Positions 14,546-58,036 of a DNA stretch of 64,000 nt are shown one piece after another. Under the pieces are notes generated by a model, which saw only the letters and a program-made list of their open reading frames with translations, did no database searches and was not told the origin of the DNA. The position numbers and the translations under genes are program-made. The stretch covers positions 161,370 through 225,369 of the forward strand of contig BPJB01000001.1 of the NCBI GenBank assembly GCA_026004395.1. The letters are read 5' to 3'. The DNA is from Patescibacteria group bacterium. GTDB taxonomy: Bacteria; Patescibacteriota; Microgenomatia; Levybacterales; UBA12049. Position 1 is the first letter of the stretch. Every line of letters begins with the position of its first letter.

Positions 14546-16066
14546 ATGTTTTGGGCAGATCAAGTAGCAAAAGAAATTAAAAAAAGGAATTTACCTCTTG
14601 AGTGGGTAGATGATATGAAAACTCCATCCGGTAGAGTTCATGTTGGTTCCCTTTTAGGAGTTGTTTTCCATGATCTTGTATACAAAGCTTTAATTGATAT
14701 TGGAGTAAACGCAAAATTTACGTATGTTTTTGAAAATCATGACCCAATGGATGATATTCCAGTTTATCTTCCTCGTGAGAAATATGAAAAATATCTAGGC
14801 ATGCCCTTATTTAAAATACCGTCTCCAGTTGAAGGTTATAAAGATTTTGCTGAGTATTATGCACTTGAATTTAAAAATACGTTTAATGCTATTGGATGTT
14901 CTCCTGAGATTCTCTGGACAAAAGATCTCTATACTAGTGGAAAGATGAATAAAGGTGTAAAGCTGGTTTTAGACAATGCTGAGGAGATTAGAAATATCTA
15001 CAAAGAACTATATAAAAAAACAATGCCCAGTGACTGGTATCCTTTTCAGGTGTATTGTGAGTCGTGTGGTAAGGTATCCACAACACGTGTTTATAAATGG
15101 GATGGAGAATTAGTGCATTATCGTTGCCTAGTTAATGCTCTTGAATGGACGAAAGGTTGTGGTTATGAAGGTAAAACATCTCCCTTTAGTGATGCATCAG
15201 GGATTAAAGGAAAACTTCCCTGGAAAGTAGAGTGGCCAGTGAAGTGGCAGGCAATTGGGGTGACAGTTGAAGGAGCTGGAAAAGATCATATGAGTAAAGG
15301 AGGATCGCATGATTTTGCTATATTGGTGTGCGAGAGAGTTCTCCATTATCCTGTACCTTATCCTATAGCGTATGAATTTATGTTGATAGGAGGTAAAAAA
15401 ATGTCCTCTTCTAAAGGTCGCGGATTTGCTGCTGCTGATATGCTTAAGATTCTTCCTCCAGAATTACTAAGATTTCTCATAGTGAAAATGAATCCGCAGC
15501 AACAAACTAATTTTGATCCATCCCAACCTGATACAATTCCTAGACTTTTTGATGAGTATCAGGAATATGCCAAACATTTTTTAGAAAAAAGGAATGATGA
15601 TGAGTCAAGAATTTTTGAGTTTTCTCAGATTAATGGGATAAAAATGCCTCCTGAGATTCGTTTTTCTACTCTTGCACAGTGGGTACAGATGCCCAATATG
15701 AATCAGCGTATAAAAGAAGAAGGACTAGAAGAATGGGCTAAATATGCTCGAGTTTGGGTAGAACGTTTTGCACCAGAGTCCGAGAAATTCACTATACAAC
15801 AGCATGTCCCCAAGGAGGCGTATTCTCTCTCAGAAAAACAAAAAGAATTTCTTAAAGTTATTGCTGGGATAATTCGAGAAGGATTAAATCCAGATGATTT
15901 TCAAAAACTAATTTATGATAAGGCAAAAGAGATGGATCTTTCCTCAAAAGATGCTTTTGCAGCAATCTACACTGTTCTTTTGGGCAAGAACCATGGACCA
16001 CGAGCAGCTTGGTTAATTTTATCTTTAGATCCTTCATTTGTTAAGGAGAGATTTACATCTCTTTAA
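14546..16066 (+). CDS. lysK: Lysyl-tRNA synthetase, class I (archaeal-type LysK)
   Basis: …KTPSGRVHVGSLLGVV… is a HIGH-type motif (HVGS variant) and …KMSSSKG… is the KMSKS motif. Length is 506 aa, and the Zn/anticodon region CESCGK…YRC is typical of class I LysRS. Confidence 0.85.
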   Translation: MFWADQVAKEIKKRNLPLEWVDDMKTPSGRVHVGSLLGVVFHDLVYKALIDIGVNAKFTYVFENHDPMDDIPVYLPREKYEKYLGMPLFKIPSPVEGYKDFAEYYALEFKNTFNAIGCSPEILWTKDLYTSGKMNKGVKLVLDNAEEIRNIYKELYKKTMPSDWYPFQVYCESCGKVSTTRVYKWDGELVHYRCLVNALEWTKGCGYEGKTSPFSDASGIKGKLPWKVEWPVKWQAIGVTVEGAGKDHMSKGGSHDFAILVCERVLHYPVPYPIAYEFMLIGGKKMSSSKGRGFAAADMLKILPPELLRFLIVKMNPQQQTNFDPSQPDTIPRLFDEYQEYAKHFLEKRNDDESRIFEFSQINGIKMPPEIRFSTLAQWVQMPNMNQRIKEEGLEEWAKYARVWVERFAPESEKFTIQQHVPKEAYSLSEKQKEFLKVIAGIIREGLNPDDFQKLIYDKAKEMDLSSKDAFAAIYTVLLGKNHGPRAAWLILSLDPSFVKERFTSL

Positions 16067-16126: not shown

Positions 16127-16981
16127 ATGAGGAAGGCTCTATTTATTCTCATCCCATCCTTAATTCTCGCAACTTCTATTTTTTTTCTGATACAAATTTT
16201 TCTTATTCGTAGTAATGACAAAGGCGCACTTCAGGTAACAGCATCTCCCAAAAGCAAGGTATATCTCAATGGGGAGTTTATAGGGGAAACTCCTCTTTGC
16301 AGATGTGAACAGGATAATATGCTTAAAGTAGGCAAATATAATATCAAACTTGTTCCTACAACAAGTGGATTTTCTGAATTTCAAGAAAAGATTATTGTGT
16401 CAAAATCAGTATTGACAGTTGTTGATCATAAATTCGGTAAAGGAGCGACCTCTGAGGGAAGCATTATTACACTTCAGCCTCTAAAAGAGAGTAATACAAG
16501 ATCTCTTTTAGTACTTTCAATACCTGATAAATCTGAGGTACTTCTTGACAATACATCAGTAGGATTTACACCGGTACTTATTAAAGATATTACCGAGTCC
16601 GATCATGAGCTGATTATCAGAAAAAGCGGCTATGCAGAAAAAAAAGTGAAGATAAGAACACCCACAGGCTATCAATTATTAGCTAAGGTATATCTAGGTG
16701 TTGATGAGGAAGAGATTGTTTTATCTCCTACACCTTCTCCAACTTCAGCTTCTCCTTCTGCAACACCAACTCCTCCTATTCGGAAAGTAACTATTTTACA
16801 AACACCAGTAGGTTTTTTGCGAGTCAGAGCAGAAAGTAACATAGAATCTTCTGAAATCGGTAGAGTAACTCCCGGACAAGAGTTTGAGCTATTAGATGAG
16901 GTTAGAGGATGGTACAAGATTAAATTGTCTGATGGCAAAGAAGGTTGGATTAGTAATCAATATGCAAAGAAAATCGAATAA
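16127..16981 (+). CDS. Membrane-anchored PEGA-domain / SH3b-domain protein
   Basis: N-terminal TM, then two PEGA-like beta modules (…KVYLNGEFIGETPL…, …VLLDNTSVGFTPVLIK…ELIIRKSGY…), a P/T/S-rich linker (SPTPSPTSASPSATPTPP), and a C-terminal bacterial SH3-like domain (…VRAESNIESSEIGRVTPGQEFELLDEVRGWYKIKLSDGKEGWIS…). Confidence 0.6.
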   Translation: MRKALFILIPSLILATSIFFLIQIFLIRSNDKGALQVTASPKSKVYLNGEFIGETPLCRCEQDNMLKVGKYNIKLVPTTSGFSEFQEKIIVSKSVLTVVDHKFGKGATSEGSIITLQPLKESNTRSLLVLSIPDKSEVLLDNTSVGFTPVLIKDITESDHELIIRKSGYAEKKVKIRTPTGYQLLAKVYLGVDEEEIVLSPTPSPTSASPSATPTPPIRKVTILQTPVGFLRVRAESNIESSEIGRVTPGQEFELLDEVRGWYKIKLSDGKEGWISNQYAKKIE

Positions 16982-17926
16982 CTAAGACTGAATAACGTAA
17001 ATAATGACAATAACCATTAATGCCCATAATAATACGGTTGCAAGTAATGGTTTATCAGAAAACAATACCTTCTCAGGGCTTTCTCCTTCATGCTTTTCGT
17101 AAATGTCTTGCATATATCTCATTAATCCATAAACGACAGGAATGATAGTTAACATCAACCATTTTCGCTGAAGATACGTTGGAAGAAAATCAGGAAAGAG
17201 AAGTTCATTGGTAATAGTAAACCGACGCGAATTTTCAAGGAAGGTGAAGAGAGAATAAGAGATAAATGTTGATGTAGCAAAAATAGATGTATAGACGTCA
17301 AGCAATCTTTCTGAATAATGTGAAAGAGATTTGCGAACTTCAGCAATATTTTTAATATTTTCTTGCGATACTAAAGTAAGTTCTCGACGTCTTTTTCCAA
17401 TAGCTAAAAATAGCGATAAAGAAATCGTTGTTAAAAGTAGCCAAACAGATATATGATAGCCGCTAAGAAACTCCCCAGCATACACTCTGAGAATATAACC
17501 TCCAGCAAGCGCTAAGATGTCAATTACAGCGATATGTTTTAGAACAATTGAATATGAAAGTTGAAGGATGACATAAACCAAAGTAATCAAGAAAAAAGTA
17601 GGTGATATCAGAAAACTTGCGATAATTCCAGTTATGCCAAGTGCCAAAGCGATAACAATCGCTTCAAAAATAGAAACATCGTTATGGGCAAGTGGACGAA
17701 ATTGTTTAAAAGGATGTAGCCTATCTTTGTTGATATCAAAAATATCATTGATTACATAGATTGCTGAGGATGTGATACAAAAAACAATAAATCCTGCAAT
17801 TGTCTCTTCCAGAATTACCGGTGTAAATAATTCACCATTAAACGTGATAGCGGCAAAGATCGCTAGATTTTTGATCCACTGTCTAGGTCGTAGTAATCGT
17901 ATAATGTTTCTAATCTTCTTTCTCAT
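16982..17926 (-). CDS. UbiA-superfamily polyprenyl-phosphate (pentosyl/phosphoribosyl) transferase, DPPR-synthase-like
   Basis: …LRPRQWIKNLAIFAAITF…YVINDIFDINKDRLHP… contains the NDxxDxxxD Asp-rich motif, and there are 8-9 TM helices. I took the internal Met (MRKKIR) as start to reduce overlap with the upstream gene. Confidence 0.7.
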   Translation of the reverse strand: MRKKIRNIIRLLRPRQWIKNLAIFAAITFNGELFTPVILEETIAGFIVFCITSSAIYVINDIFDINKDRLHPFKQFRPLAHNDVSIFEAIVIALALGITGIIASFLISPTFFLITLVYVILQLSYSIVLKHIAVIDILALAGGYILRVYAGEFLSGYHISVWLLLTTISLSLFLAIGKRRRELTLVSQENIKNIAEVRKSLSHYSERLLDVYTSIFATSTFISYSLFTFLENSRRFTITNELLFPDFLPTYLQRKWLMLTIIPVVYGLMRYMQDIYEKHEGESPEKVLFSDKPLLATVLLWALMVIVIIYVIQS

Positions 17927-18983
17927 GGGGTAAGCGGAGTACGTAATGCAAAAAAAGTAAACCGCCTCCAACAATAACAATTAGCATAACAATAGCAAAA
18001 AGTTTGCTTTTGCTATGTAGTGTTAAAGCTATTGAGCCCAATATAGCAGAGATGCTCCAATAAAACAATGCGATTTGTCTTTGAGTATAACCAAGTCTTA
18101 GCAATAAGTGATGTAAGTGTTTATTGTCGTGCCAAAATGGTGATTTGCCGGAGAGAAGTCGTCGAGCAATTGTGAATAATGCATCTACTGTTGGTATTCC
18201 CATGACAAGAATTGCTGTTGCTAACTTCGCGCTTGAGAGAATTGAGACAACAGCAAGCAGCAGATACATACTGGTTGCTCCATATCCTGGAAAAATTTTT
18301 GCTGGATAAAAGTTATACATAAGAAATCCAAGCGATGCTCCTGCAATAATGAATGAGAGATTAGCATCAATAAGGTTTTTGGTATCAACGAAGGGGAAAC
18401 GCAGGCTTAATAAGCCAATAACAATTGCTGATATGGCAACAATACCAGGCATTTGGCCATCAACCCCTTTACTCCAATTCAGCATGTTCATTACCCAAAT
18501 AATCCAAATGCCAGCAATAATATCTCCAAGTGTTATTCCCAAGAAAGGAATAGAGTATGTATCAAGATAAAGAATCCCTCCAAAAGGGTGGGTGATAAAA
18601 GGTACGCTGACTCCGCTGCCCACCACAATTACTGCACAGAGAATATTAATTAGAAACCTCAGATAAGGTGAAACATCTTTTGCTTTTGCGTTGTATTGAT
18701 CATCAATAACTCCAACGACAAGTGCCAGGAATGCTGCAAAAAATATTGCAATTGTTATGGACGTTATAGGAATGAAGAAGATGCTAGTAAGGAAGATACC
18801 AAGAAAAAGTGGTATGCCTCCACCTCTGGGAATAGGTCTTGTGTGAATGATGCCGGGATGCTTATGGATTGAAGGATCATCTACCAAACCTCTTTTTTTA
18901 ATAAAAGGCAAGAGTATCCTCACCAAGATTGTAGTCAAGAAAAAGGCTAAAATAAAAGGAATAAGAAATGGTAGTAATTTCAT
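17910..18983 (-). CDS. Polyprenyl-phosphate HexNAc-1-phosphate transferase (WecA/TagO / MraY superfamily, GT4-PNPT)
   Basis: …GLVDDPSIHKHPGIIHTRPIPRGGGIPLF… and …FWHDNKHLHHLLLRLG… match WecA-type motifs. About 10 TM helices. Confidence 0.72.
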   Translation of the reverse strand: MKLLPFLIPFILAFFLTTILVRILLPFIKKRGLVDDPSIHKHPGIIHTRPIPRGGGIPLFLGIFLTSIFFIPITSITIAIFFAAFLALVVGVIDDQYNAKAKDVSPYLRFLINILCAVIVVGSGVSVPFITHPFGGILYLDTYSIPFLGITLGDIIAGIWIIWVMNMLNWSKGVDGQMPGIVAISAIVIGLLSLRFPFVDTKNLIDANLSFIIAGASLGFLMYNFYPAKIFPGYGATSMYLLLAVVSILSSAKLATAILVMGIPTVDALFTIARRLLSGKSPFWHDNKHLHHLLLRLGYTQRQIALFYWSISAILGSIALTLHSKSKLFAIVMLIVIVGGGLLFLHYVLRLPHEKED

Positions 18984-19349
18984 TTAGATAATAAGTTGTG
19001 TAATCCTAAAAATGAATATTATTGTAATAAGAGTCAAAAGCAAACTGGTAACGCCTAACATGCGTGCAAGAAGGGGAATTTTGTTGTAGAGGAAATTTAT
19101 TAATAACGCATTTAGAATTACAGCAAAAAATGCTACAATGGGGGCAATAAAGAGTTGCCATTTACCCCCTAAACGAGCAGCTCCCCAAGGCATTTGATTG
19201 TAAAGAGGTAAGAAATTAGGAAGATAGCGATATACAAAAATAATATAAAGTAATGATAAAAACAGGAGAAAACATGAGGCAAGTATTGAAAAACTAATAA
19301 TCTTGTCTTTTTTCAAATAATTAATTAATGCGTTCATAAAGATGTACAT
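18984..19349 (-). CDS. Small integral membrane protein (3-4 TM), unknown function
   Basis: A hydrophobic 121-aa ORF wedged between two glycosyltransferase genes. Its stop abuts the WecA-like start. Confidence 0.4.
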   Translation of the reverse strand: MYIFMNALINYLKKDKIISFSILASCFLLFLSLLYIIFVYRYLPNFLPLYNQMPWGAARLGGKWQLFIAPIVAFFAVILNALLINFLYNKIPLLARMLGVTSLLLTLITIIFIFRITQLII

Positions 19350-20817
19350 CTTGAATTACAATCTTTTCTCTATAATTATATAAAGAAAAAGGTAGAGGCT
19401 GTATTCCTGGAAATATTGCAACATATTTAGGTTTGGCTTTTAGAAAAGCTTGTTCTGTTTCTGCAAGCGTTTGCATATTGGTCAGCATATGATATGCAAC
19501 TGTAAATCTCCCTACAGGAAGTTTATTAGATAGCACATATATTTGAGCATTATTTCCCCAGAGGAAGATGGTATCGCTATTTCTGGTATGTCGTTGTAAG
19601 TACAATGCAATTTCTGCATCACGTGGCGCTCTACGATCAAAAAAAGATTGATAATCAGATACTGATTTCTTACCTATTAAAAAAGATATAAAATTGGGGT
19701 AGTAGAGTATCGTTTTAACGATACTCCAATGATTGAAGGATTGGCTCAAAATAACAATTAAAATAATAAATATTAAGGCAAGATATTTTTTGTATTTTGT
19801 ATGGATACTTAAAAGAAGTCCTGGGATAAGAGAGAGACTTGGCAATATGACAAGAAGATAGTGTGTATAAGGTCTTTGAGAGAAAAAACTATTAAAAAGT
19901 GAAAAAACAATCCAAAGAGCTATGAAAAGAGCAGAATAGGGTATCTTTTTTCTGAATAAAATGATTCCCCAAATAAATCCTATAAGAAGAGTAAATTTTA
20001 GTATAAGAAGTCCCTGAGGAATAATAAAGAGATTCTTATATCCCACATATCCTACATTGCTTAAGAATATGGCATGCAGATATGTATAGAGTGCTTTGTG
20101 TTTCAGAAAATAAAAAATCGTGATGCAAAAGGGAACAAGAAATCCAATCAATAATAGAGCAAAAACTTTCCCATATTCCAATAAATATTTTTTAAATGCG
20201 TTAATATTTAGTGTTGTCGGAAGACAAGCTATAAAAAGGAAAAGAAAAAAAGAAGCAAAATCAAAAACGGCTACTGTTTTATAAAGAAAAGACACTCCAA
20301 GCAATAATCCGGCAATAAAAATCCATTTTGCAGATTGTTTTAAATGAGAGTCATTTAAAAATTGTTGAACAATGATCAATCCTGAAGCAATGGTAGGTAA
20401 GAGCATAAAATTTTCAGCATTGGCTATATTACCTTCAATAATCGGCAGTCCAAAAAAAAGAGCAAAAATTAAAGTACTTATCAAAGACGATTTTTTATTT
20501 TGAAAGAGGTGGAGTGAGAGATGGTAAAAAAATAGAAGCGTTAGAATTCCAACAATAGCAGATGTGAATCTTACCCAGAACTGATCTGCTCCCAATAGAG
20601 AATATGTAATATAAAGAAGCGGAGGTTTATTATCCCATATTTGTGTGTAGAGTATTCTTCCTTGATTGAGAGCAGATCCGATCACTTCATATATACCTTC
20701 ATCTCCGTACCAGTAGGGTTCAAAAAATGAGGGAAAACGAAGAGTAAAAAATAAAACACCAATAAGAGATATCGTCCATAATTCCCGGTTTTTTTTTAGA
20801 TCTACTTTATTTTTCAT
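19321..20817 (-). CDS. GT-C fold glycosyltransferase (ArnT/PMT, GT39/GT83-like), polyprenyl-phosphate-sugar dependent
   Basis: …FTLRFPSFFEPYWYGDEGIYEVIGSALNQGRILYTQIWDNKPPLLYITYSL… is an ArnT/PMT-type N-terminal loop, including a DE-like acidic motif. At least 10 TM helices, then a C-terminal soluble domain. Confidence 0.65.
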   Translation of the reverse strand: MKNKVDLKKNRELWTISLIGVLFFTLRFPSFFEPYWYGDEGIYEVIGSALNQGRILYTQIWDNKPPLLYITYSLLGADQFWVRFTSAIVGILTLLFFYHLSLHLFQNKKSSLISTLIFALFFGLPIIEGNIANAENFMLLPTIASGLIIVQQFLNDSHLKQSAKWIFIAGLLLGVSFLYKTVAVFDFASFFLFLFIACLPTTLNINAFKKYLLEYGKVFALLLIGFLVPFCITIFYFLKHKALYTYLHAIFLSNVGYVGYKNLFIIPQGLLILKFTLLIGFIWGIILFRKKIPYSALFIALWIVFSLFNSFFSQRPYTHYLLVILPSLSLIPGLLLSIHTKYKKYLALIFIILIVILSQSFNHWSIVKTILYYPNFISFLIGKKSVSDYQSFFDRRAPRDAEIALYLQRHTRNSDTIFLWGNNAQIYVLSNKLPVGRFTVAYHMLTNMQTLAETEQAFLKAKPKYVAIFPGIQPLPFSLYNYREKIVIQDVHLYERIN

Positions 20818-22307
20818 GCTTTTTCTGTTACTTTATACTCCATTCGTTTTCCCAGCATAAGCTGTGTATGGGAAATGAGAGCAGGAAGTGCTGATAGGAA
20901 AAATCCAACAATTGGAAGCAGAATAAACTCGAAAGGGAAAAAGATTTTACGGCGTAGAGGAAGATTTACATTCTCTGGTCTATTTTTATAATCAATAAAC
21001 AGCATAATCAGCAGTGCTACAACACAGGACGTTAAGATAATTCCTGCCAAGTGAGGAAGACTATAACCCAGAGAGCTTCTGGAGAAAGCAGGGTTAACAA
21101 ACGGCATAATATTTGCCGCAATAGTGATGATAAACCAGTTTACTGGCCAAAGGAAATGATCCAGAAGCACATGATATAACATTACTGTCTTTCTTACAAA
21201 AGGTACATTGGGGACAGTCAGCCACCATTTTACAAAGAGTGGATCATCCGATACTCCCCATGACCAGCGCCTTTCTTGATTATATTTATTTTTTAAGCTT
21301 TTCCAATATCCTCCTGCATATGCAGCATCCATTGATGTTTTTAAGAAAATAGGTTCAACCCATACTTGTCCTTTAAGTTTGAAAAAGGCTTTGAAAAATA
21401 TTCTATAATCCTCAGGAATGACATCAGTGTCCCAAAATCCAATATCGCGAAGCATCTTGAAAGACAAAGAATATGTAGATTGTGTGATCAGTCTATCTCC
21501 TTGGACAAGAAGAGAAATTCTCCAAAGACTGCCAAAGAAGGAAAGAATTCTTATAGGAGCTGGTACTTTCCAGATATTATTGTAAAATACCGTAGCTGAT
21601 TGCCAGAATTTATAATAACGATTGGGATCAGAAAGGAATTTATAACTAAGATACGCGAAGAATTGTTTATCAAACATCGAATCTACATCAACTGATGAAA
21701 CAGTTGCATAATCTATGTCGAGATTGCCCTTTACAAATAATCTCTCGTATGCAATTTTCCCTCCATATGCTTGATTGGAGGATTTTCCTTTGATTTCACC
21801 TTCTTGATCAGGATGATAGGTCGCAAAAATACTGCCAAATTTACCTTTAAATTCTTTGATAAGCGTATTTGCTTTCTGTTTGGCATCTTTTTCTCTTTGT
21901 TCCATTGCTAGAACAATATGAATTTTTTTCAGAGGGAGCGTTTGTCGGGTTAGATTTTCAAGTGTCATGCGCATCTTTTCAATGTTCTCCCGATAATTAG
22001 GAATGACAAGAACGTGATTGATCTTATCGAAATGCTCTAATTTTTTAGCTTTTTCTAGCCAGTTTTCTTTTTCTGCTTTTTTAATTCTTTTTTGAGCTCG
22101 ATAGGCATTGATAACAAGAGAATAGGATTTGTAAAACCAGTAAATATCAAAAAAAAGAATAAAATAGGCAAGAAGCGTAGGTGCAAGAAGTGATCCCCAG
22201 ATGGGAGAGAGAATGGCAGTCCATGAAGCAAGACCTGGAAGAAGTTCAAGAAATCGTCTTGTTTTTATTGGATAACGATAAAAAAGTTTATTGAAAAAAC
22301 TTGTCAT
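20814..22307 (-). CDS. Processive family-2 glycosyltransferase (cellulose-synthase-like, QxxRW), membrane-embedded
   Basis: N-terminal TMs, a GT2 catalytic core (…HVLVIPNYRE…, D-rich …SVDVDSMF…), a QERRWSWG (QxxRW) motif, and C-terminal TM helices. Confidence 0.65.
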   Translation of the reverse strand: MTSFFNKLFYRYPIKTRRFLELLPGLASWTAILSPIWGSLLAPTLLAYFILFFDIYWFYKSYSLVINAYRAQKRIKKAEKENWLEKAKKLEHFDKINHVLVIPNYRENIEKMRMTLENLTRQTLPLKKIHIVLAMEQREKDAKQKANTLIKEFKGKFGSIFATYHPDQEGEIKGKSSNQAYGGKIAYERLFVKGNLDIDYATVSSVDVDSMFDKQFFAYLSYKFLSDPNRYYKFWQSATVFYNNIWKVPAPIRILSFFGSLWRISLLVQGDRLITQSTYSLSFKMLRDIGFWDTDVIPEDYRIFFKAFFKLKGQVWVEPIFLKTSMDAAYAGGYWKSLKNKYNQERRWSWGVSDDPLFVKWWLTVPNVPFVRKTVMLYHVLLDHFLWPVNWFIITIAANIMPFVNPAFSRSSLGYSLPHLAGIILTSCVVALLIMLFIDYKNRPENVNLPLRRKIFFPFEFILLPIVGFFLSALPALISHTQLMLGKRMEYKVTEKA

Positions 22308-22316: not shown

Positions 22317-23150
22317 TCAACGTAGCTTTTTAAAAATAGTATAAACATTTTGAGTCGTCTGTTCTACAAGTATTTCAAGGTCGATATTCTTAAGACGCGC
22401 AATATATTCACCAACAATTAAAACATACTCTGGGAGATTTCGAGTTCCACGATAAGGATGTGGTGTAAGAAAAGGGCTATCTGTTTCCGTCACAATACGA
22501 TCAATAGGTGTAAGCTTTACTAATTCTTTTAACTCAACTGTTTCTCCTGGTGCAAGACCTTTATAAGTTATATTGCCGTCAAATCCTATAAAAAATCCTA
22601 GATCTAGTGCGTCTTTCAATACTTCTTCTGTTGCGGCAAAACAATGGAACATGCCGGGAACATCCATAAGTAAATGTCTTCTCTCTTTTAGCATTGTGAT
22701 AACATCTTTACCAGCAAGTCGGTTGTGGATCTGAAGTGGTAGTTTGTGCTTGTGAGCTAGATTGATTTGTAGATCGAAAATTTCTTTTTGGATATTGGGA
22801 TCAACAATTCCATTTGACTTGTATTGAAAATAGTCAAGACCAATCTCTCCTATTCCAATCACCTTGGGATGGTTTGCCATATCCTCTAAAGCCTTAATCC
22901 AGTCATCGGTTTGAGATACATACTGAGCTTCTCTTTTAAGTTCTACCTTGTCTGCATGATGGGGATGGATACCTACAATAGCAAACAGCTGATTATATTT
23001 TTCTGCAAGCTCTAGCGCACGTTTACTTGAGTCTATCTTCGTTCCCACATTGATAATACGCGTCACTCCTTTAGATAGAGCGCTTTTGATAACAGCATCA
23101 TAATCTTTCTCAAATGAATGAAAATTTAGGTGACAATGAACATCAATCAT
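22317..23150 (-). CDS. tatD: TatD-family metal-dependent hydrolase (DNase)
   Basis: MIDVHCHLNFHSF… and …GEIGLDYF… are TatD signatures. Confidence 0.8.
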   Translation of the reverse strand: MIDVHCHLNFHSFEKDYDAVIKSALSKGVTRIINVGTKIDSSKRALELAEKYNQLFAIVGIHPHHADKVELKREAQYVSQTDDWIKALEDMANHPKVIGIGEIGLDYFQYKSNGIVDPNIQKEIFDLQINLAHKHKLPLQIHNRLAGKDVITMLKERRHLLMDVPGMFHCFAATEEVLKDALDLGFFIGFDGNITYKGLAPGETVELKELVKLTPIDRIVTETDSPFLTPHPYRGTRNLPEYVLIVGEYIARLKNIDLEILVEQTTQNVYTIFKKLR

Positions 23151-23185: not shown

Positions 23186-24604
23186 TTATATTCTTGGAAA
23201 AAGCGGTGTAGCACTTTTTATCTCACCCCAAAATTGAGAGAGAATTTTTTCAGAAGTTTCAGGGAGGAATGGTTGCAGGTTAAAAGCAATGTTGCGAATT
23301 TGTTGAATAATATCACTAAGAATTTCTCTTGCTTCGTTTTGCTTAAGAGTCCAAGGTTGAGTATAGTTTAGCTGCTTGTCAATTTTGGCAATTTTTTGCC
23401 AAATTAATTCTAAGGCGGTATTGAATTTAAACTCATTAATAAGATCTTTTATTCTCTTATCGAGGTTTTCCTGTTTATCTTCCCAAATAAGATTATTGTT
23501 TTCTGCAAGTTTAGCAATTCTGGCTACTAAATTACCAAGTCCGTTAGCAAGATCTGCATTGTATGCCTCTTTCAGCTTTTCCTCTGAGAAATCGCCGTCT
23601 TGAAAAGGTGATATTTTTGCTAAGCAATAATAACGCAGAGCGTCGGTTCCGTATTTTTCTACAATATCAACAGGATTGATAACATTCCCTAATGTTTTTG
23701 ACATTTTTTGTCCTTTTACAGTGAAATACTCGTGCACAAAGAGTTTTTTAGGAAGTTTTAGTCCTGCAGAGAGGAGAATAGCCGGCCAATATACGGCATG
23801 GAATCTAATAATTCCTTTACCTATGACGTGGAGGTCTGCTGGCCACCATTTATTATACATTTCTTCATCCCATCCGAATCCGATACCGCTTTGATAGATA
23901 TTCAGTGCATCAAACCAAACATATATTCGCTGTGATGGATCATTTGGTACAGGCACTCCCCAGTTTTTAGCGCGTTGATTACTGCGAGAAATACTAAAAT
24001 CCTGTAATCCTCCTTTTATAAATGAAATTATTTCATTTTTTCTGAATTCAGGGACAATTTCATATTCATTCGCTGTAATAATTTTTAAGAGCTGATCTTG
24101 ATAGCGTGTAAGGCGAAAAAAATAATTTTCCTCTTCTACTTCCTCTAAGGGATTGCCTGGATGTTCTGGACATTCGTTTTTCTCATTTAACTCATCTGCG
24201 GTTTTAAATTCTTCGCATCCGATACAATATAATCCTTTGTAAGATTTTTTATAAATATCTCCATTTTTATTGCAAAGTTCCCATAGTTTTTGACTTGCGA
24301 CGAAATGTCTCTTTTTATCACTTCCTTTTTGAAAGACATCGAAATGAACATTCAGTTTTTTAGCTGTTTCCTCAAAAAGACGCGCATTCTCATCCACGAA
24401 TTCCTGTATGGATTTTCCTGCTTTTTCTGCAGCTTGAACATTTTTTATGGCGTTTTCGTCAGATCCGCAAAGATAGAGGACATCATCTCCAATTATCCTA
24501 TGAAATCGAGCAATAGTATCAGCTTGGATAAACTCGAGAGCATGCCCAATATGAGGGGTTGCATTTACGTAGGGAATGGCACTAGTAATATAAAATTTAG
24601 ACAT
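23186..24604 (-). CDS. metG: Methionyl-tRNA synthetase (short form, no C-terminal tRNA-binding domain)
   Basis: …YITSAIPYVNATPHIGHALE… is the HIGH motif and …KMSKTLGNV… the KMSKS motif. The CxxC Zn knuckle CIGCEEF…CPEH is present. Confidence 0.9.
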   Translation of the reverse strand: MSKFYITSAIPYVNATPHIGHALEFIQADTIARFHRIIGDDVLYLCGSDENAIKNVQAAEKAGKSIQEFVDENARLFEETAKKLNVHFDVFQKGSDKKRHFVASQKLWELCNKNGDIYKKSYKGLYCIGCEEFKTADELNEKNECPEHPGNPLEEVEEENYFFRLTRYQDQLLKIITANEYEIVPEFRKNEIISFIKGGLQDFSISRSNQRAKNWGVPVPNDPSQRIYVWFDALNIYQSGIGFGWDEEMYNKWWPADLHVIGKGIIRFHAVYWPAILLSAGLKLPKKLFVHEYFTVKGQKMSKTLGNVINPVDIVEKYGTDALRYYCLAKISPFQDGDFSEEKLKEAYNADLANGLGNLVARIAKLAENNNLIWEDKQENLDKRIKDLINEFKFNTALELIWQKIAKIDKQLNYTQPWTLKQNEAREILSDIIQQIRNIAFNLQPFLPETSEKILSQFWGEIKSATPLFPRI

Positions 24605-24650: not shown

Positions 24651-25070
24651 TTATTGTTCCCTCTTGCTTGTAAATAATAACTCAAGTGTTAAAAAAAGTG
24701 CCAGTAGTAACAAAAAGAAAAAGGGGTGGGTCAGATTATTAGCGCGAAAAACAAAATATATCACAGTAAATATACTGAGCAATATTCCATGTTTTCTGCT
24801 CTTTAATAAAAATGCAAAAAAAGAAAAAATAAAAAGCGCCAGTAACATATAAAAGATAATCACCACAGGAATAGATGCGAATTTAATCGAAAAATTCTGA
24901 TAAGGAGAAAGAGTTGTAATTATAATAAGAAGAGCAATAAAAGAAAGTATACTTAATATTAAGAATTTCCATGTGCGCCTCTTTCTTCGCATAGAATAAG
25001 TGTAGCAAATTTTTTTTATTTTAATTAAAAGGTTAATTTTCTTTTTTAAAATATTGACAAAAAATAGCAC
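24651..25070 (-). CDS. Small membrane protein (3 TM), unknown function
   Basis: A hydrophobic 139-aa ORF with no recognisable motif. Confidence 0.3.
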   Translation of the reverse strand: MLFFVNILKKKINLLIKIKKICYTYSMRRKRRTWKFLILSILSFIALLIIITTLSPYQNFSIKFASIPVVIIFYMLLALFIFSFFAFLLKSRKHGILLSIFTVIYFVFRANNLTHPFFFLLLLALFLTLELLFTSKREQ

Positions 25071-29809: not shown

Positions 29810-32800
29810 ATGAAAAAGCTTCTGCCCAGTGTATTGATAATTGGTCTTCTGTATCTATTCTTCTTTTTTCCTTTTCATGTGTTTGCTCAGGACGCAGGAT
29901 TACAATCTCCTATGACTATTACTACTACGACAGATCTGCCGCAAGAGGGAGCATGGATTAAAGATCCTGAGGTTACAAAGGTAGGGAAAAATGCTGCAAG
30001 ATCGGGAATGCTTCTTGATTGGACTCTTCAGGAATATCATTGGGCATCAACGAGCGCTGAGTCAGTGAGACCGCTGGCTGAATTCTGGACTGTTATTCAA
30101 AGAATAGTTTATTCACTCTTTCTTTTTGTGATTATTGTAACGGCTTTAATATTAATTATTACACGAGGCAAAAGCATTTCCGCTCGTCGTTTTTTGCCTA
30201 GATTCTTTTTCGTAATTTTATTGGTTACTTTCTCGTTTTCATTGGTTAAATTTGTCTACCAAATTACAGATATTTTTCAAGGTTTTTTTCTTAAAAATCC
30301 ACAAGGTCAGATTATTTCCTCAAGAGATCTTCTTTATGTTGGTTTTGATTATAAAGACTTCGTAGGATTGAGAGTTTTTGGTCAACAATATGATGAGTCA
30401 GCGATGATAGCGCTTCTTTTAGTTAAACTTACAGCTTTTACTTATTATGTAATGTCTATATTGCTTATTGTACGCAAAATTATATTATGGTTTTTTATTG
30501 TTGTATCTCCAATTTTTCCTCTCCTTCTTCTTTTCTATCCATTGCGTAATACTGCCAAAATCTGGTTAGGAGAATTTTTTCGTTGGGTATTATATGCTCC
30601 TTTATTTGCTATTTTCCTTTCAGGTCTTGTTAAGATGTGGCAAAGTTCTCTGCCTCTACCTTTTAATTTTATAGGGGAGAATGTCCGTGATAATGTAATC
30701 TATCCAACTGCAATCAATATTCTTCTTGGAGGTCCTCAACGATTGGTTACTATTGATAATAGTGTTAATCTGCCTAACACTTTTGCACTCTATTTGGTTG
30801 CTCTTTTAATGTTGTGGGTGGTTATTATTCTACCTTTTATCTTGCTTCAGATATTTCTTGATTATATGTACACATTCACTTTTAAGGATTCACCAATTTT
30901 CAAACAAATGATGGGTTTTATTAATAATCGTTTTATTCCTCCATCACCTCCGCCTTTGTCTCCTACTGCTCCTGGACAGCCTTCGGGTCTTGCTCGCAAT
31001 CTCCCATTTGGAAAGCGTATCTCTCTACCTCAAGGAGCTGGTATTGCACGTTCAATTCCTACTGATGTAGCTACTTCACAAAAAGCAAATATTGCTAGAC
31101 CATTTGTTGCATCAAAAGTGGATCAGTCTAAAGTTCTGCGTATGGTCAATCTTTCAATCCCAACAATGCAAGATATCGCACGTTTTGAACGAGCTAGATT
31201 AGAGAAGGATACACTCCAGAAAAAAGAAATTGAAAGAACGCGACAGATTCTTAGAAATATTGCAAACCCAATGAGTATCACAACTGCGTCTGAGAGAGAA
31301 CGCTTCATGCATATCCGTGAGATGCTGCTTAAAGAAAGTCAAAGTGGAAATCCTGTTGCGCTAACAGTTCTTCAAGCAGCCACAAACTATTATATGTCAA
31401 ATGTCTCACAACAATTTTTATCTCAATCACAGGCAACAGAAGAGATTATTCAAAATATTGCGCATCCTGAGAAGATCACCAATACTCTGGAGAGAGAAAG
31501 AATTCTTCAGCTTAAAGAGCAGATTATCAAATCAAGTAAAGAAAATAATCCTCTAGCAACTACTCTTTTAAAAGTTATTTCCCAAATTGAAAATTCTACC
31601 AAACAGCAACTGCAGAAAACATTAGAGAAAATTTCGCAACCTCAATTGATACAATCAACAGATGAAAAAGAAAAATATCAAGAACTTCGTGAGCGTATTG
31701 TTGCAGCCAGTAGATCAGGAAATCAACTGGCAGTACTTCTTCTTAAGTCATTGGAGTCTAAGACTTCTCTTGATCAAGTACAAGCTCTGAAGGAACAGCT
31801 TATTAAAGCTCGCGATGCAGGTAATCCTTTAGCTTCAGAAATACTGAATATTGCATCATCCACAACAAAAGAGTTGTCCAATGAACAGATCACAACGATT
31901 GAATCTGAAATTAGAGAAGCACAAAAAAGAGGAGATCCACTTGCATATCTACTGATGATGATGCTCTCTCAAAAAACAAAGTCGAAGACCGAGTCTCCAA
32001 CCCCGGCTACTTTGAAACTTAAAAAAGGCACATTCCCGGTTGTCAATAGAATTCAACAAGTTAGTCTTGATGATTATGAAGCAGTAAAGAAACTCTGGAA
32101 AGACAATTATCAAAATCTGGATATTCCTCAAGAAGTTGAAGGATTCAGATCACGAAGAGAATGGATCTTAAATGATATTGATTCAATACAAAAAACAATC
32201 AATTTGCTTACTTCACAAAATCCTCAAGATATAGAAGAGGGAATGAAGAATGTTTCCGATATTTTACCATTCCTTCTAATAGGAGGATTTTCACAGACTG
32301 AAATCATAGCTTATCTTAAAGCAAAAATGGAGGCTGCAAAATCTGTACTTGAAGAGTTGGATAAAGAGACAACAGAAGATCTTGTTGAGTCCAGACCTTC
32401 TAAAACTTCTTCTCAACATCAACTGCATATGAGTGTTCAGGAGAGTATAGATAATACGTCTAATCAATATGAAAATGAGATTAACAATTCTATTACAAAT
32501 TTTTACAGTATCAATGCTTCGATTGCACAACAGAGCGATCTGTCAACAAAATCAGTTAATTTTCAATCTGCACAAAATGCAAATTCCTTATTAACGTTAG
32601 TCAATCTTCCTCTGCCTACCATGCAAGATATTGTTAAGTATGAGAAGGCACTTTCTTCTAAGGATACAACTTCTAAAAAAGAGGTAGAAAAGTTTCTTCA
32701 GACGTTAAAGAAACTTGCAGATCCAGAACATCTTACACAAGAAGAAAAAGAAAAGATACAAGCAGTAAAAGATACTCTAGAGAAGGAGAGTAAACAAGGC

Positions 32801-35236
32801 AATATACTTGCAGAGTCTATTCTTACGGCTACAAAACTGAGCCAAGAGCAATTTACAGAAAAAGATATTCCAATTCTTTTACAGCTGTTGCGAACGATCA
32901 CCGATCCATCAATGGCAGAAGATCCTTCAGAACAAGAAACCTACAGAAGGTTATATTCTCAGCTAAGTAATGCCAAACAACAGGCACAGCCTCTAGCTTT
33001 GGAAATCTTTCGTCTAATTGATACATTAGCTCAAAAAGAGTCAGAGTTGACAGCCGTGTTTCTCCAAAAACTCAGCGACCCTGATTCTCTAACAGATGCT
33101 AACGGAAGATTGACATTTCTCAAACTGAAGGAAAGATTACAAGAAGAAAGCAGTAAAGGTAATCAACTCGCATCATTTATCCTTCAGGAAGCTAAAAGAG
33201 ATACTAATCTGATTAACGCTAATAAAGTTAGACTTAAGATTATTGAATCAGCTTTAGATGGTGATCAGTTGGCAAATTTTATTCTCTCAACTCATATACA
33301 GCAGATACCTACTGCTCTTCAAAATCAGGCTCTAACCGTATATAAAATCCTTAGAGATGAAAAACAAAAAGGAAATACTCTAGCACAATCACTATTGAGA
33401 TTATTAGAGTCGAAAAAGCAAACCACCTCAACTAAGATTCATCCTTTATTACCTAAACAGAATCGTATTCAACAAGTAAGCCTTGAAGATTATGAAGCTG
33501 TGAAGAAACTCTGGAAAGAAAATTTCCTTTCAGATGAGATAACAGGTTATTCGGATAAAGAAAGAGCAGAATGGATAAAAAAAGAGATTGCCAATGTTTC
33601 AGAGACAATTAACCTTCTTTCATCTTCAAATCCAGAAGATATTGAGCAGGGAATGAGTCGAGTTGGAGAAATTCTTCCCTTCCTTCTTATTGGAGGATTT
33701 TCACAAGGTGAGATATTAGGATATTTGAAAGCAAAATTGGAAGCTGGTAAATCAGCACTGGAAGAAATTGAAAATAATCAAGATGAGGTAGTTAGAGTAG
33801 AGAGTAATCTTAAGAGCAAAAAAAACGAAAAGACGTTATCTTTTAGTAAAGACTTTGTCGGAGAAATGCAGCAGACTGCTGCTAAAAAAACTGATGACAA
33901 AAAATATAGAGATAAAGAGGAACTAGTTTCATCTCTAAATCTACAAGCTAATCTTCCTCAAACTGAGACTCTTCTTAAGACGCTCTCTCTTCCTTTTTAT
34001 AATCTGAAGGACATTCCCTCTCTTGATATACAGCAGAAAATCACTCCTTCAGCAGCATTTTTAGAACTTGGTGCTCTTTTAAAACTTGCTCATCCGGATA
34101 AGATTAAAGATGCAAAAGAGAAAGAAAAGTTTGCACAAATACGTTCTGCTTTGGTTTCGCAAGCTCGTGATGGAGATGAGTATGCATCATCTATTCTTGC
34201 TGTAGCAGATATCATTTCAGAAAAGGCAGATTCTGAAGATATAGCTCTTCTTACACTTAAAACATTGCAAAAAATTGTATTTCCCGATCTTTGTAAGATA
34301 GATGAACAACAAGAGATGCATTCTCTTAATCAGCAATTACAACAGGAGATACAAAAAGGAAATCTTCTTGCGAGTGAAGGAGAGAAGCTAGCAATAGCAT
34401 ATAAACAAGCACAGCTAGATCAACTTGCTAACTTGATAAGTGAGCTTTATAGTGCGCAAGCAGGATCAGAAGATTCCGAAGAAACACTTCGCGTGTTGAG
34501 AAAACAATTAGAGAATGCTCGTGCAATTGGAAATAACATTGCAGAAAAAATTATTGCATTTGGCGAGAAACAACCCAGTAAATATGAAATTGAAAAACTT
34601 CTAATTTCTTTGTATGAAATCAAAGAAACAGATCGTCTTATATCAACTCTATTCACTTCCTATCTTGCACCTTCGTCTGAATTGTTGTCGCTTGCTAGAG
34701 CTTACTATGAAAAACTGCAAAAACAGAAAAATAATCCATTTGCAGCTTTGTTGATTAGACTAATCAGAAAACAATTACAACAAAGAAAAAGAACGGTCGC
34801 TTCTCTTAGTTTGCCACAACAAAATAGATTGCAACAAGTAAGTCTTGAAGATTATGAGGCAGTAAAGAGGCTCTGGTATGAAATTTATCTTCGTGGAGAT
34901 ATTCCGCTTGATGATGAGGGAGAAACACAATCTCGCGAACAATGGATTGCATCGGATAAAGAAAAACTAATTAACACAGTAAATCTTCTCACATCTGATG
35001 ATCCAGTGAATAATAGAAGAGCTATGGAACAGATTATAGATATTTTGCCATTCCTTCTTATTGGGGGATTCTCCAAAGATGAAATGGTGGGTTATTTAAA
35101 AGCAAAGAGAGAAGCAGCTGAGATGGCTTTGTCGGTACTTAGTGATCAAAAAGAATCTATTTTTTTAAATTCACAAAAAGAAGCTAATTCTCAATCAATA
35201 GCAAAAAACCAAAACTTAAAGAAAGATACTTTCTGA
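29810..35236 (+). CDS. Giant (1808 aa) polytopic membrane protein: signal peptide, a 5-6 TM N-terminal domain (VirB6/TrbL-like topology, tentative), a P-rich linker, and about 1400 aa of alpha-helical repeats in three super-modules
   Basis: One uninterrupted 5.4 kb frame. N-terminal cleavable-type signal (MKKLLPSVLIIGLLYLFFFFPFHVFAQDAG), TM helices between aa 95-370, then a PPSPPPLSPTAPGQPSG linker. After that come repeated ~40-aa units (…ERERF.xIRExLLKESQSGNPVALTVL…) and three copies of a ~115-aa module (…QQVSLEDYEAVKKLWKEN……ILPFLLIGGFSQ.EI.GYLKAK.EA…). Confidence 0.7.
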   Translation: MKKLLPSVLIIGLLYLFFFFPFHVFAQDAGLQSPMTITTTTDLPQEGAWIKDPEVTKVGKNAARSGMLLDWTLQEYHWASTSAESVRPLAEFWTVIQRIVYSLFLFVIIVTALILIITRGKSISARRFLPRFFFVILLVTFSFSLVKFVYQITDIFQGFFLKNPQGQIISSRDLLYVGFDYKDFVGLRVFGQQYDESAMIALLLVKLTAFTYYVMSILLIVRKIILWFFIVVSPIFPLLLLFYPLRNTAKIWLGEFFRWVLYAPLFAIFLSGLVKMWQSSLPLPFNFIGENVRDNVIYPTAINILLGGPQRLVTIDNSVNLPNTFALYLVALLMLWVVIILPFILLQIFLDYMYTFTFKDSPIFKQMMGFINNRFIPPSPPPLSPTAPGQPSGLARNLPFGKRISLPQGAGIARSIPTDVATSQKANIARPFVASKVDQSKVLRMVNLSIPTMQDIARFERARLEKDTLQKKEIERTRQILRNIANPMSITTASERERFMHIREMLLKESQSGNPVALTVLQAATNYYMSNVSQQFLSQSQATEEIIQNIAHPEKITNTLERERILQLKEQIIKSSKENNPLATTLLKVISQIENSTKQQLQKTLEKISQPQLIQSTDEKEKYQELRERIVAASRSGNQLAVLLLKSLESKTSLDQVQALKEQLIKARDAGNPLASEILNIASSTTKELSNEQITTIESEIREAQKRGDPLAYLLMMMLSQKTKSKTESPTPATLKLKKGTFPVVNRIQQVSLDDYEAVKKLWKDNYQNLDIPQEVEGFRSRREWILNDIDSIQKTINLLTSQNPQDIEEGMKNVSDILPFLLIGGFSQTEIIAYLKAKMEAAKSVLEELDKETTEDLVESRPSKTSSQHQLHMSVQESIDNTSNQYENEINNSITNFYSINASIAQQSDLSTKSVNFQSAQNANSLLTLVNLPLPTMQDIVKYEKALSSKDTTSKKEVEKFLQTLKKLADPEHLTQEEKEKIQAVKDTLEKESKQGNILAESILTATKLSQEQFTEKDIPILLQLLRTITDPSMAEDPSEQETYRRLYSQLSNAKQQAQPLALEIFRLIDTLAQKESELTAVFLQKLSDPDSLTDANGRLTFLKLKERLQEESSKGNQLASFILQEAKRDTNLINANKVRLKIIESALDGDQLANFILSTHIQQIPTALQNQALTVYKILRDEKQKGNTLAQSLLRLLESKKQTTSTKIHPLLPKQNRIQQVSLEDYEAVKKLWKENFLSDEITGYSDKERAEWIKKEIANVSETINLLSSSNPEDIEQGMSRVGEILPFLLIGGFSQGEILGYLKAKLEAGKSALEEIENNQDEVVRVESNLKSKKNEKTLSFSKDFVGEMQQTAAKKTDDKKYRDKEELVSSLNLQANLPQTETLLKTLSLPFYNLKDIPSLDIQQKITPSAAFLELGALLKLAHPDKIKDAKEKEKFAQIRSALVSQARDGDEYASSILAVADIISEKADSEDIALLTLKTLQKIVFPDLCKIDEQQEMHSLNQQLQQEIQKGNLLASEGEKLAIAYKQAQLDQLANLISELYSAQAGSEDSEETLRVLRKQLENARAIGNNIAEKIIAFGEKQPSKYEIEKLLISLYEIKETDRLISTLFTSYLAPSSELLSLARAYYEKLQKQKNNPFAALLIRLIRKQLQQRKRTVASLSLPQQNRLQQVSLEDYEAVKRLWYEIYLRGDIPLDDEGETQSREQWIASDKEKLINTVNLLTSDDPVNNRRAMEQIIDILPFLLIGGFSKDEMVGYLKAKREAAEMALSVLSDQKESIFLNSQKEANSQSIAKNQNLKKDTF
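32054..32360 (+). repeat. Intragenic repeat copy 1 (conserved ~300 bp core of a ~1.4 kb super-repeat)
   Basis: caacaagttagtcttgatgattatgaagcagtaaagaaactctggaaagac… through …attttaccattccttctaataggaggattttcacag… This recurs at 33470 and 34832 with about 80% identity. Confidence 0.7.
33470..33770 (+). repeat. Intragenic repeat copy 2
   Basis: caacaagtaagccttgaagattatgaagctgtgaagaaactctggaaagaaaat… through …attcttcccttccttcttattggaggattttcacaagg…. Confidence 0.7.
34832..35140 (+). repeat. Intragenic repeat copy 3
   Basis: caacaagtaagtcttgaagattatgaggcagtaaagaggctctggtatgaaatt… through …attttgccattccttcttattgggggattctccaaag…. Confidence 0.7.
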
Positions 35237-35290
35237 TTATACTACAGAAAGTATCTTGCTATTGCTAAATTTTTAGTATTTAATAAGTAT

Positions 35291-37966: not shown

Positions 37967-38137
37967 CTTCAAAAAATTTAGACTGAGATTATTTGAGTTT
38001 TCTATTTAGAGTTTCTATACTTAAGATAGGTAATAAATGACAAAAATCTATAGTTTTCAATTTCGTTTTCAATTTTTACCAATGAAGTAAAAATTGTAAC
38101 GACAGAATAATATATAAGTTTATTTTTAATTTTTACT

Positions 38138-57897: not shown

Positions 57898-58036
57898 CAC
57901 ATTTCTCCTCGTATTTGCTTGTACGCAAAAATAATTATTGAGCGAATTAGATTGAGTACAAAATATAAGGCACCATTTATAAGACGATAAACTCTTGGCC
58001 AAATAGCTTTAAGATAAGCTAGTAATTTTTCTTTAT

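Follow-up and report, generated by a model that had tools for sequence, protein, structure and literature searches.

The cell envelopes of the Candidate Phyla Radiation (CPR), or Patescibacteria, are little known, and most of the lineages have no cultured representatives. What such a cell builds on its surface, and from which lipid-linked sugar, is the question raised by a cluster of five genes at positions 16982-22307 of a 64,000-nucleotide stretch of DNA (hereafter the window) from a Patescibacteria group bacterium (assembly GCA_026004395.1, contig BPJB01000001.1, positions 161,370 to 225,369 of the forward strand). The GC content of the window is ~35%, and the nearest named relatives of its proteins belong to Candidatus Levybacteria. 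We propose, with moderate confidence, that the cluster is a core Levybacteria envelope-glycan operon, in which a glycan synthase is combined with the addition of ribofuranose at the outer face of the membrane from polyprenyl-phosphate-ribofuranose. Ribofuranose addition is proposed because a polyprenyl-phosphate 5-phosphoribosyltransferase (PPPRS) and a glycosyltransferase of the GT-C class are both present and tightly linked, with no epimerase beside them. The five genes of the block are as follows.

16982-17926, minus strand: UbiA-family PPPRS (314 aa), with an ATG start; an alternative TTG start would give 16982-17980
17910-18983, minus strand: PNPT-fold protein of the Glycos_transf_4 family (357 aa; PF00953), role uncertain
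18984-19337, minus strand: small membrane protein (117 aa; a start at 19349 would give 121 aa), from the ORF and the starts of orthologues
19321-20817, minus strand: GT-C glycosyltransferase, ArnT/PMT-like and of GT39/GT83 type (498 aa), from Pfam PMT/PMT_2 and fold
20814-22307, minus strand: GT2 synthase-like membrane enzyme (497 aa), from motifs and fold

An earlier note on this DNA had described five co-directional, partly overlapping minus-strand genes, and the list of open reading frames (ORFs) bears this out to the nucleotide, the five of them tiling 16982-22307. The ATG at 17926 is taken as the real start of the UbiA gene, because the relatives are all of ~314 aa and the identical public record GIW61338.1 has 314 aa; the small protein probably starts at 19337, as most orthologues begin at the corresponding methionine, which gives 117 aa. 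The GT2 and GT-C genes overlap by 4 nt, the GT-C and small-protein genes by 17-29 nt (17 with the start at 19337), and the PNPT and UbiA genes by 17 nt; the small-protein and PNPT genes abut with a gap of 0 nt. Scans for consensus promoters and terminators gave counts equal to the shuffled expectation, and the operon structure is therefore read solely from gene packing. Automated names already stand in public records for these proteins, namely decaprenyl-phosphate phosphoribosyltransferase, a WecA-type name, GT39 and GT2.

Family and active site identify the UbiA protein as a polyprenyl-phosphate 5-phosphoribosyltransferase of the type of Mycobacterium tuberculosis Rv3806c, the decaprenyl-phosphate phosphoribosyltransferase or DPPR synthase (DPPRS). 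It lies above the cut-offs of PF01040 (70 bits) and of the DPPRS equivalog NF008978 (223.2 bits, cut-off 207), and below those of two other DPPRS models (NF008977, 218 versus 234 bits; NF008976, 175 versus 474); its three best NCBIfam matches are all decaprenyl-phosphate phosphoribosyltransferase equivalogs. Other UbiA clades score 16-61 bits, including heme O synthase (33) and the 4-hydroxybenzoate prenyltransferase UbiA (25), and MenA gives no match. The profile assignment thus places the protein in the DPPR-synthase clade and refutes the alternative of a menaquinone or heme O prenyltransferase. It aligns over its full length to Rv3806c (PDB 8j8j; E=1.1e-42, 33% identity), and the Asp-rich motif NDxxDxxxD, from which the earlier note had recognized the enzyme type, is N60-D61-x2-D64-x3-D68, with N60, D61, D64 and D68 invariant and shared with Rv3806c. 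The record GIW61338.1, of 314 aa, carries the same enzyme name as assigned here.

The residues that bind phosphoribosyl pyrophosphate (PRPP) lead to the same assignment. In Rv3806c, Mg2+ is held by N73 and D77, the ribose by N73 and Q135, the 5'-phosphate by K28, Y70 and Y157, and the pyrophosphate by R22, K87, R90, K143 and Y138, and ordinary UbiA prenyltransferases do not conserve the phosphoribose-binding residues (PMC10994848). The Rv3806c sequence was rebuilt from the published printed alignment, and then aligned with the window protein and 15 orthologues. R13, K19, Y57, N60, D64 and K74 of the window protein correspond to R22, K28, Y70, N73, D77 and K87, and R77, Q122, Y125, K130 and Y144 to R90, Q135, Y138, K143 and Y157; all eleven PRPP contacts are thus identical in the window protein, and they are invariant in the 15 orthologues. 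The K208 position is variable in the same alignment (K, R or S). From PRPP, the enzyme would be expected to make polyprenyl-P-beta-D-ribofuranose-5-phosphate.

The second component, the GT-C, is above the Pfam cut-offs for PMT and PMT_2, and its relatives are named "glycosyltransferase family 39" by NCBI. Its family profile found no match among PDB sequences, and the protein was placed by fold comparison only. With an AlphaFold2 model built from 45 homologues (pLDDT 88.7), the best Foldseek match was ArnT with bound undecaprenyl phosphate (5f15; E=1.6e-7, TM-score 0.56), followed by AglB and other oligosaccharyltransferases (OSTs) and by PMT; ALG3, GPI-MT-I, Pmt4 and PimE, which use polyprenyl-monophosphate sugars, were matched as well. 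Directly after the first transmembrane (TM) helix stands the invariant sequence E33-P-Y-W-Y-G-D39-E40-G, in which D39 and E40 form the acidic catalytic loop, and the C-terminal extramembrane domain is rich in aromatic residues. The model and the family matches argue for a genuine ArnT/PMT-type GT-C, as the earlier note had called it, which is predicted to use a polyprenyl-phosphate sugar at the outer face of the membrane. Its fold is no closer to the Aft/Emb arabinosyltransferases than to ArnT, PMT and ALG enzymes, and it is not assigned to the Aft/Emb type. That this enzyme consumes the product of the UbiA protein is what we infer from linkage only.

The third component, the GT2 enzyme, is the predicted maker, and possibly the exporter, of a glycan backbone. 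The window protein gave no match to Pfam GT2 families and none to PDB sequences; 37 of 58 family members match PF13632. The family is small, with 1,859 members among the 1.84 billion representatives searched exhaustively, mostly full-length and of ~500 aa. Across the 58 members (26-80% identity), invariance is confined to D207, D209, D300, Q344, R347 and K496, the first five of which are the DxD, ED and QxxRW hallmark of processive GT2 synthases, the last motif reading Q344-E-R-R347-W348 in the window. The top Foldseek matches of the AlphaFold2 model (pLDDT 93.9) were cellulose synthase BcsA (4p00, E=3e-9), Chlorella virus hyaluronan synthase (HAS), Xenopus HAS and PcManGT, with E values of 3e-9 to 1e-7 and TM-scores of 0.45-0.57. 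Sequence profiles relate the protein to such enzymes only marginally (E=0.008 for PcManGT, 0.014 for chitin synthase and 0.2 for BcsA; range 0.008-0.3), and PcManGT, one of the fold matches, is a non-polymerising enzyme. The invariant motifs and the fold sustain the description of a cellulose-synthase-like GT2 with QxxRW in the earlier note. Like BcsA, class I HAS, chitin synthase and PcManGT, which are also its best fold matches, the enzyme has the D, DxD, (T)ED-like ED and QxxRW elements, and a GT-A domain between N- and C-terminal TM helices; unlike them, it has no PilZ or other regulatory domain, lies below the Pfam GT2 thresholds, and ends in a tail of its own, LMLGKRxEYKVTEK.

This tail is nearly invariant down to 26% identity, with K496 fully invariant and K487, E490, Y491 and V493 unchanged in nine closer members. 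A C-terminal tail is seldom conserved to this degree, which suggests a gating or partner-binding element. The window protein is 100% identical to GIW61342.1, which is annotated "hypothetical protein". A GT2 60% identical to the Levybacteria enzyme is encoded at 10001-11491 of contig L156 (Ga0209062_1000238), among genes for histidyl-tRNA synthetase, a SurA-like protein, MazG and pantothenate kinase; the neighbours are all housekeeping genes, from which nothing about the function of the GT2 can be read. The contig suggests lateral transfer of the GT2 between CPR and non-CPR bacteria.

The linkage of these genes was followed by two scans. The genome scan used the UbiA protein, with peptide patterns selected to be Levybacteria-specific, and found orthologues in at least 169 species-level genomes, 80 of the 80 loci retrieved being Levybacteria-like; 80 further loci, mostly from close relatives, came from a metagenome scan with the GT2. 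Synteny was counted over 160 non-redundant loci, with those of sufficient sequence as denominators. Starting from the GT2, the GT-C, small-protein, PNPT and UbiA genes follow in order in 100 of 104 loci; starting from UbiA, the GT2, GT-C, small-protein and PNPT genes precede it in order in 107 of 108. The cluster is accordingly conserved as a unit in relatives, across ~160 Levybacteria loci, and the earlier note's treatment of it as one system gains from these counts. Median identities to the window proteins are 68% for the GT2, 67% for UbiA, 64% for the PNPT-fold protein and 62% for methionyl-tRNA synthetase (MetRS), followed by 59% for the TatD hydrolase and 48% for the PEGA/SH3 protein (both encoded in the flanks), 46% for the GT-C and 38% for the small protein. 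Since the first three medians are above that of MetRS, the three enzymes that face the cytoplasm are under stronger constraint than a tRNA synthetase, and the outward-facing proteins of the block evolve faster. The overlap of the PNPT and UbiA genes is of 17-20 nt in the window and the relatives examined. Such conserved linkage points to functional coupling of the genes.

Some of the records retrieved carry unexpected taxonomic labels. Many Levybacteria metagenome-assembled genomes are titled "uncultured Gammaproteobacteria bacterium", and a 5.4-kb contig labelled "Nitrososphaeria archaeon" (MEM4736945.1, MEM4736946.1) encodes a GT-C >90% identical, and a GT2 identical, to those of the window. 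These records are probably mislabelled or mis-binned.

How would the donor be made and used? The UbiA enzyme would move 5-phosphoribose from PRPP to polyprenyl phosphate at the cytoplasmic face, yielding polyprenyl-P-ribofuranose-5-P. The 5-phosphate would then be removed by a hydrolase of no known type, for which the adjacent TatD hydrolase or an unlinked phosphatase may be considered. Whether ribose is then epimerized was judged from the surrounding genes: Pfam and NCBIfam scans covered ~47 window ORFs of at least 100 aa, of which 8 had no family match, and the annotated flanks of two relatives (loci L001-L004) were inspected besides the 64-kb window. Neither a DprE1/DprE2-like nor any other epimerase was found in the window or in these flanks; in the window, there is no FAD-oxidase/ALO or SDR pair, and the sole FAD_binding_4 protein is MurB. 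No epimerase being linked, the predicted donor is polyprenyl-P-ribofuranose rather than its arabinose counterpart, and the donor would remain in that form. Next, it would be flipped to the outer face, the 117-aa membrane protein being the only candidate by position, and there the ArnT/PMT-like GT-C would pass the pentofuranose to an extracytoplasmic acceptor, most likely the polymer of the adjacent cellulose/hyaluronan-synthase-like GT2.

The earlier note had proposed a search for genes of PRPP synthase, DprE1/E2-like epimerase and phosphatase, and this search came back empty for all three in the window and the flanks of the two relatives. Elsewhere in the window (56617-58002, minus strand) lies a gene for a protein of the thymidine/AMP-phosphorylase family (Glycos_trans_3N, Glycos_transf_3, PYNP_C), a type that we take to be linked to the CPR/archaeal salvage of AMP to ribose-1,5-bisphosphate; it may have a bearing on how pentose phosphate is supplied for PRPP.

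Among experimentally defined frameworks, the three-component pentofuranose system fits best (Kelly et al. 2024, PMC11127046). In such systems, a PPPRS and a phosphatase make undecaprenyl-P-ribofuranose from PRPP, a flippase exports it, and a GT-C adds alpha-ribofuranose to the finished glycan, with auxiliary epimerases, if present, turning ribose into xylose or arabinose; PPPRS, flippase and GT-C together are established by experiment as a route by which alpha-ribofuranose, or one of its epimers, is added outside the membrane (PMC11127046). In Citrobacter youngae O1/O2, the components are ORF15 (PPPRS-PRP), ORF14 (MATE flippase) and ORF12 (a GT-C of family GT136) (Kelly et al. 2024). As in that system, a UbiA-type PRPP-dependent synthase is encoded here beside an ArnT-like GT-C, ribofuranose is predicted without an epimerase, and the modification is predicted to occur at the outer face after polymerisation. 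The block differs in having no fused HAD-type PRP domain and no MATE or GtrA flippase, the 117-aa protein standing in that position; in a GT-C that is PMT_2/GT39-like by its Pfam matches; and in the presence of a synthase-type GT2, an atypical PNPT and TatD, in contrast to an O-antigen ABC-transporter locus. The CPR host is also presumably single-membraned, unlike the host of the three-component system.

The small protein has ~3 predicted TM helices and 117 aa, and so the mini membrane protein of the earlier note is indeed present in the cluster. Orthologues occur in 120 loci at 29-53% identity, with a conserved loop, LPPxxPxFNQLPWGxxRL, to which P40 to R55 of the invariant residues (P40, P44, Q48, W51, G52, R55, N76 and R92) belong. 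A lenient Pfam scan of 27 orthologues returned only noise (DUF1648 at E=0.36 in 3 members, not significant). Membership of the GtrA or SMR flippase families was rejected, hhalign giving a probability of at most 8% against E. coli YfdG (GtrA), ArnE and ArnF. The protein is a candidate flippase or accessory subunit, and its gene position is the sole argument. A second possible flippase, the multi-TM ORF at 24651-25070, was also set aside: it is conserved, but travels with MetRS and not with the glycan genes.

Several observations weigh against the proposed ribofuranose pathway. In the fold comparison, the GT-C has no specific similarity to known pentofuranosyltransferases. Neither a Rv3807c-like PAP2 nor a HAD-PRP phosphatase was found in the window or the flanks of the two relatives, and no phosphatase domain is fused to the synthase, all 314 aa of which align to Rv3806c. 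There is no MATE gene in the block, the window or those flanks, and the small protein is unrelated to GtrA or ArnE/F. Three loci (L033, L162 and L163) have no GT-C in the cluster, and one (L145) has no UbiA; the extra genes of L033, for a PsbP-like protein and an ATPase of ABC type, are not a relocated GT-C. The non-CPR contig L156, of ~60% GC, has the GT2 without the other block genes, so that the synthase can do without them, and two distant GT2 relatives stand beside MetRS or a PMT_2 GT-C with no UbiA visible, on contigs of only 3-4.5 kb.

Some of these points bear on an alternative that we regard as unlikely, namely that the block is a syntenic mosaic held together, MetRS and TatD included, by operon packing in a streamlined genome, in which the GT-C uses another lipid donor made elsewhere, such as a polyprenyl-P-hexose, perhaps to modify proteins or the GT2 polymer, and the PPPRS product serves a different, unlinked transferase or meets some other fate. 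It would agree with a GT-C fold that lies nearest to users of Dol-P-Man, Dol-P-Glc and Und-P-Ara4N and not to Aft/Emb, with the four deviating loci, with the distant GT2 relative that is paired with a PMT_2 GT-C on a short contig where no UbiA is seen, and with the housekeeping genes of TatD and MetRS in the same co-directional run. On the other hand, in ~100 loci no lipid-sugar synthase other than the PPPRS is encoded near the GT-C, the overlapping frames suggest co-translation, and the five genes stay linked while the flanks change: lysyl-tRNA synthetase (LysRS) is a neighbour at just 19 of 84 loci, and MetRS adjoins TatD at just 27 of 89. The pairing of PPPRS with a GT-C is, moreover, a documented functional one (PMC11127046).

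For the PNPT-fold protein, the earlier description has to be changed. It had been called WecA, an initiating N-acetylhexosamine-1-phosphate (HexNAc-1-P) transferase; the fold stands, with PF00953 (Glycos_transf_4) matched at 76 bits, above the Pfam cut-off, and so do the DD and HIHH-like motifs, but the transferase label is not justified on the sequence. The protein is far below the equivalog cut-offs for WecA (TIGR02380, 96 versus 326 bits) and MraY (TIGR00445, 42 versus 192), and the family profile of 27 orthologues matches only MraY structures (E=7e-14), with the same loss of aspartates visible. Alignment with E. coli WecA and MraY shows D94/D95 (WecA D90/D91), D175 (WecA D159, the second Asp of NxxNxxDGxDG) and H289-L-H-H292 (HIHH-like) to be retained. 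WecA D156 is replaced by K172, and D217, the Asp of VFMGD, by Y234; both acidic residues are conserved in the two references compared, E. coli WecA and MraY. WecA D217 is presumably MraY D265 in Aquifex numbering. Of 117 distinct orthologues, 109 have K at the D156 position, 5 have S, 3 have T and none has D, and across the same set the D217 position is Y in 103 and F in 1, again never D. D156 and D159 are described as the active-site aspartates of WecA, and the Coxiella enzyme is inactivated by D156C (PMC5843353).

Compared with the initiating enzymes of the PNPT group (WecA/TagO/WbpL and MraY), the protein thus has in common the Glycos_transf_4 family, ~10 TM helices, the DD pair, the second Asp of NxxNxxDGxDG and HLHH, and differs in the exchange of D156 for K/S/T and of D217 for Y/F, in its low equivalog scores, and in an additional invariant cytoplasmic motif, DDPxxHKHPxxIH. 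Between loci, the protein retains 51-76% identity, and many of its polar residues are invariant. The automated name WecA on GIW61339.1 is probably wrong in detail, and such names on this record and its relatives call for caution. The protein could handle the carrier lipid, synthesize a primer or serve as a partner without catalytic activity.

Primer synthesis leads to the least probable reading considered here, and one that we judge highly improbable: the PPPRS and the atypical PNPT would build a new lipid-linked primer or anchor, the PNPT acting on polyprenyl-P-ribose-5-phosphate itself, in which the 5-phosphate is kept as an attachment point, for example as acceptor of a sugar phosphate, and the GT2 would extend this primer into a core envelope polymer and the GT-C transfer, ligate or decorate the glycan outside the cell. 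Such chemistry is without precedent. The overlap of 17-20 nt between the PNPT and UbiA genes, the missing phosphatase of known type, and an active site that is systematically remodelled, yet retains the identity and the invariant polar residues described above, speak for it, as does the closeness of the GT-C fold to the oligosaccharyltransferases AglB and STT3, which transfer en bloc. Against an obligatory reaction pair stands the UbiA-less locus L145, where a PNPT-like protein persists with a further Asp lost, the D159 equivalent being absent from its motif GVNGQ. Synthase-type GT2 enzymes, furthermore, are normally primer-independent in this sense.

Returning to ribofuranose addition, two of three flanking genes have to be considered, TatD as a possible supplier of the missing hydrolase or phosphatase activity and the PEGA/SH3 gene as the source of a speculative acceptor.

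22317-23150, minus strand: TatD-family metal-dependent hydrolase (277 aa; PF01026, TIGR00010)
23186-24604, minus strand: MetRS, co-directional and upstream of TatD
16127-16981, plus strand: PEGA + SH3_3 protein, secreted or membrane-anchored, convergent neighbour of UbiA

The TatD protein matches PF01026 with 259 bits and TIGR00010 with 257 (cut-off 206). Its gene lies 9 nt upstream of the GT2, a direct neighbourhood that is kept in 124 of 128 loci, as compared with the 27 of 89 in which MetRS is directly upstream of TatD, and thus TatD has a better claim than MetRS to be counted in the conserved block. It may take part in the function of the block, possibly as the phosphatase that is missing, or simply be carried along in the operon. 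Two observations concern the other neighbours: the LysRS encoded at 14546-16066 (plus strand) is of class I, the archaeal type (PF01921), as opposed to the usual bacterial class II, and the multi-TM protein of 24651-25070 (minus strand; ~113 aa), which adjoins MetRS upstream and travels with it, has no family match.

The stop codon of UbiA directly abuts that of the convergent PEGA/SH3 gene, which stands beside UbiA in 83 of 84 genome loci, and a role of its product as acceptor or wall-binding partner is speculative. Protein O-glycosylation, in which the PMT-like GT-C would add the pentofuranose to Ser/Thr of secreted proteins, for example in the linker of the PEGA/SH3 protein, is in our view very unlikely. 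It takes its appeal from the Pfam PMT/PMT_2 matches, the GT39 annotation of relatives and the presence of Pmt4 among the best fold matches; from the constancy of the PEGA/SH3 neighbour, whose linker (residues 198-217) is rich in P/S/T in the window (16 of 20); and from its resemblance to the TfpW-dependent arabinofuranosylation of Pseudomonas pilin, pilin arabinosylation through a PPPRS orthologue being cited in PMC11127046. The linker is, however, poorly conserved, with 6 to 16 P/S/T residues of 20 in orthologues, and was rejected as a conserved glycosylation target on account of this variability. In addition, the GT-C has no PMT MIR domain, its aromatic-rich C-terminal domain is more like an acceptor domain of carbohydrate or OST type, and the polymer synthase in the block favours a glycan acceptor, as the ribofuranose proposal has it.

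The comparison with the mycobacterial decaprenyl-phosphate-ribose/arabinose (DPR/DPA) pathway, from which the earlier note had set out, can now be divided. What stands is a UbiA protein of DPPRS type linked with a GT-C: the first enzyme matches Rv3806c at the level of an orthologue (33% identity, substrate contacts kept), the general scheme is that of a PRPP-derived lipid-linked pentose which GT-C enzymes would consume, and the PNPT-family and GT2 genes echo WecA and GlfT2 of arabinogalactan synthesis. What does not stand is arabinose, given the absence of DprE1/E2 in the territory searched and a GT-C no closer to Aft/Emb. In contrast to mycobacteria, neither DprE1/DprE2 nor a PAP2 phosphatase was found here, the small protein is not GtrA-like as Rv3789 is, and the GT-C has no special similarity to AftA, AftB, AftD or Emb; furthermore, the GT2 is of the membrane-channel synthase type, in distinction to GlfT2, and the PNPT is without its key aspartates.

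The gene names were already known, as was the pathway logic, from mycobacteria and from the three-component systems of 2024, and our literature search found no paper linking CPR/Patescibacteria with polyprenyl-phosphoribose chemistry. The locus differs from the known systems in that no phosphatase or flippase family is recognizable, the PNPT is atypical, TatD is linked, the GT2 is of the synthase type, and the whole is a core conserved locus.

Two further regions of the window encode possible surface or secretion components. On the plus strand, an ORF of 1,808 aa (29810-35236), in which a weak TrbL/VirB6-like region at the N-terminus is the sole family signal, precedes a tandem pair of ClpB/ClpC-like AAA+ genes (35291-37966 and 38461-40878), and the region 29810-40878 may be part of a Patescibacteria type IV secretion-like machinery. 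At 58037-61070 (minus strand), a sortase gene overlaps that of a 773-aa protein with Baseplate_J-like and GlxA beta-barrel-like segments, and the two may form a sortase-substrate pair for a surface structure.

For the Levybacteria, the conservation of the block means that its product is probably a core component of the envelope, and not an optional serotype decoration such as those of Gram-negative O-antigen systems. The prediction is a surface glycan that contains ribofuranose and is built from PRPP. Targets for biochemistry follow from the positions of the proteins, namely the small protein in the place of a flippase, TatD in that of a phosphatase, and the PNPT-fold protein that has lost its canonical aspartates. 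The CPR bacteria, with their reduced genomes, depend on nucleotide and ribose salvage, and if the PRPP-based pathway is true, the synthesis of the envelope would be tied to that salvage.

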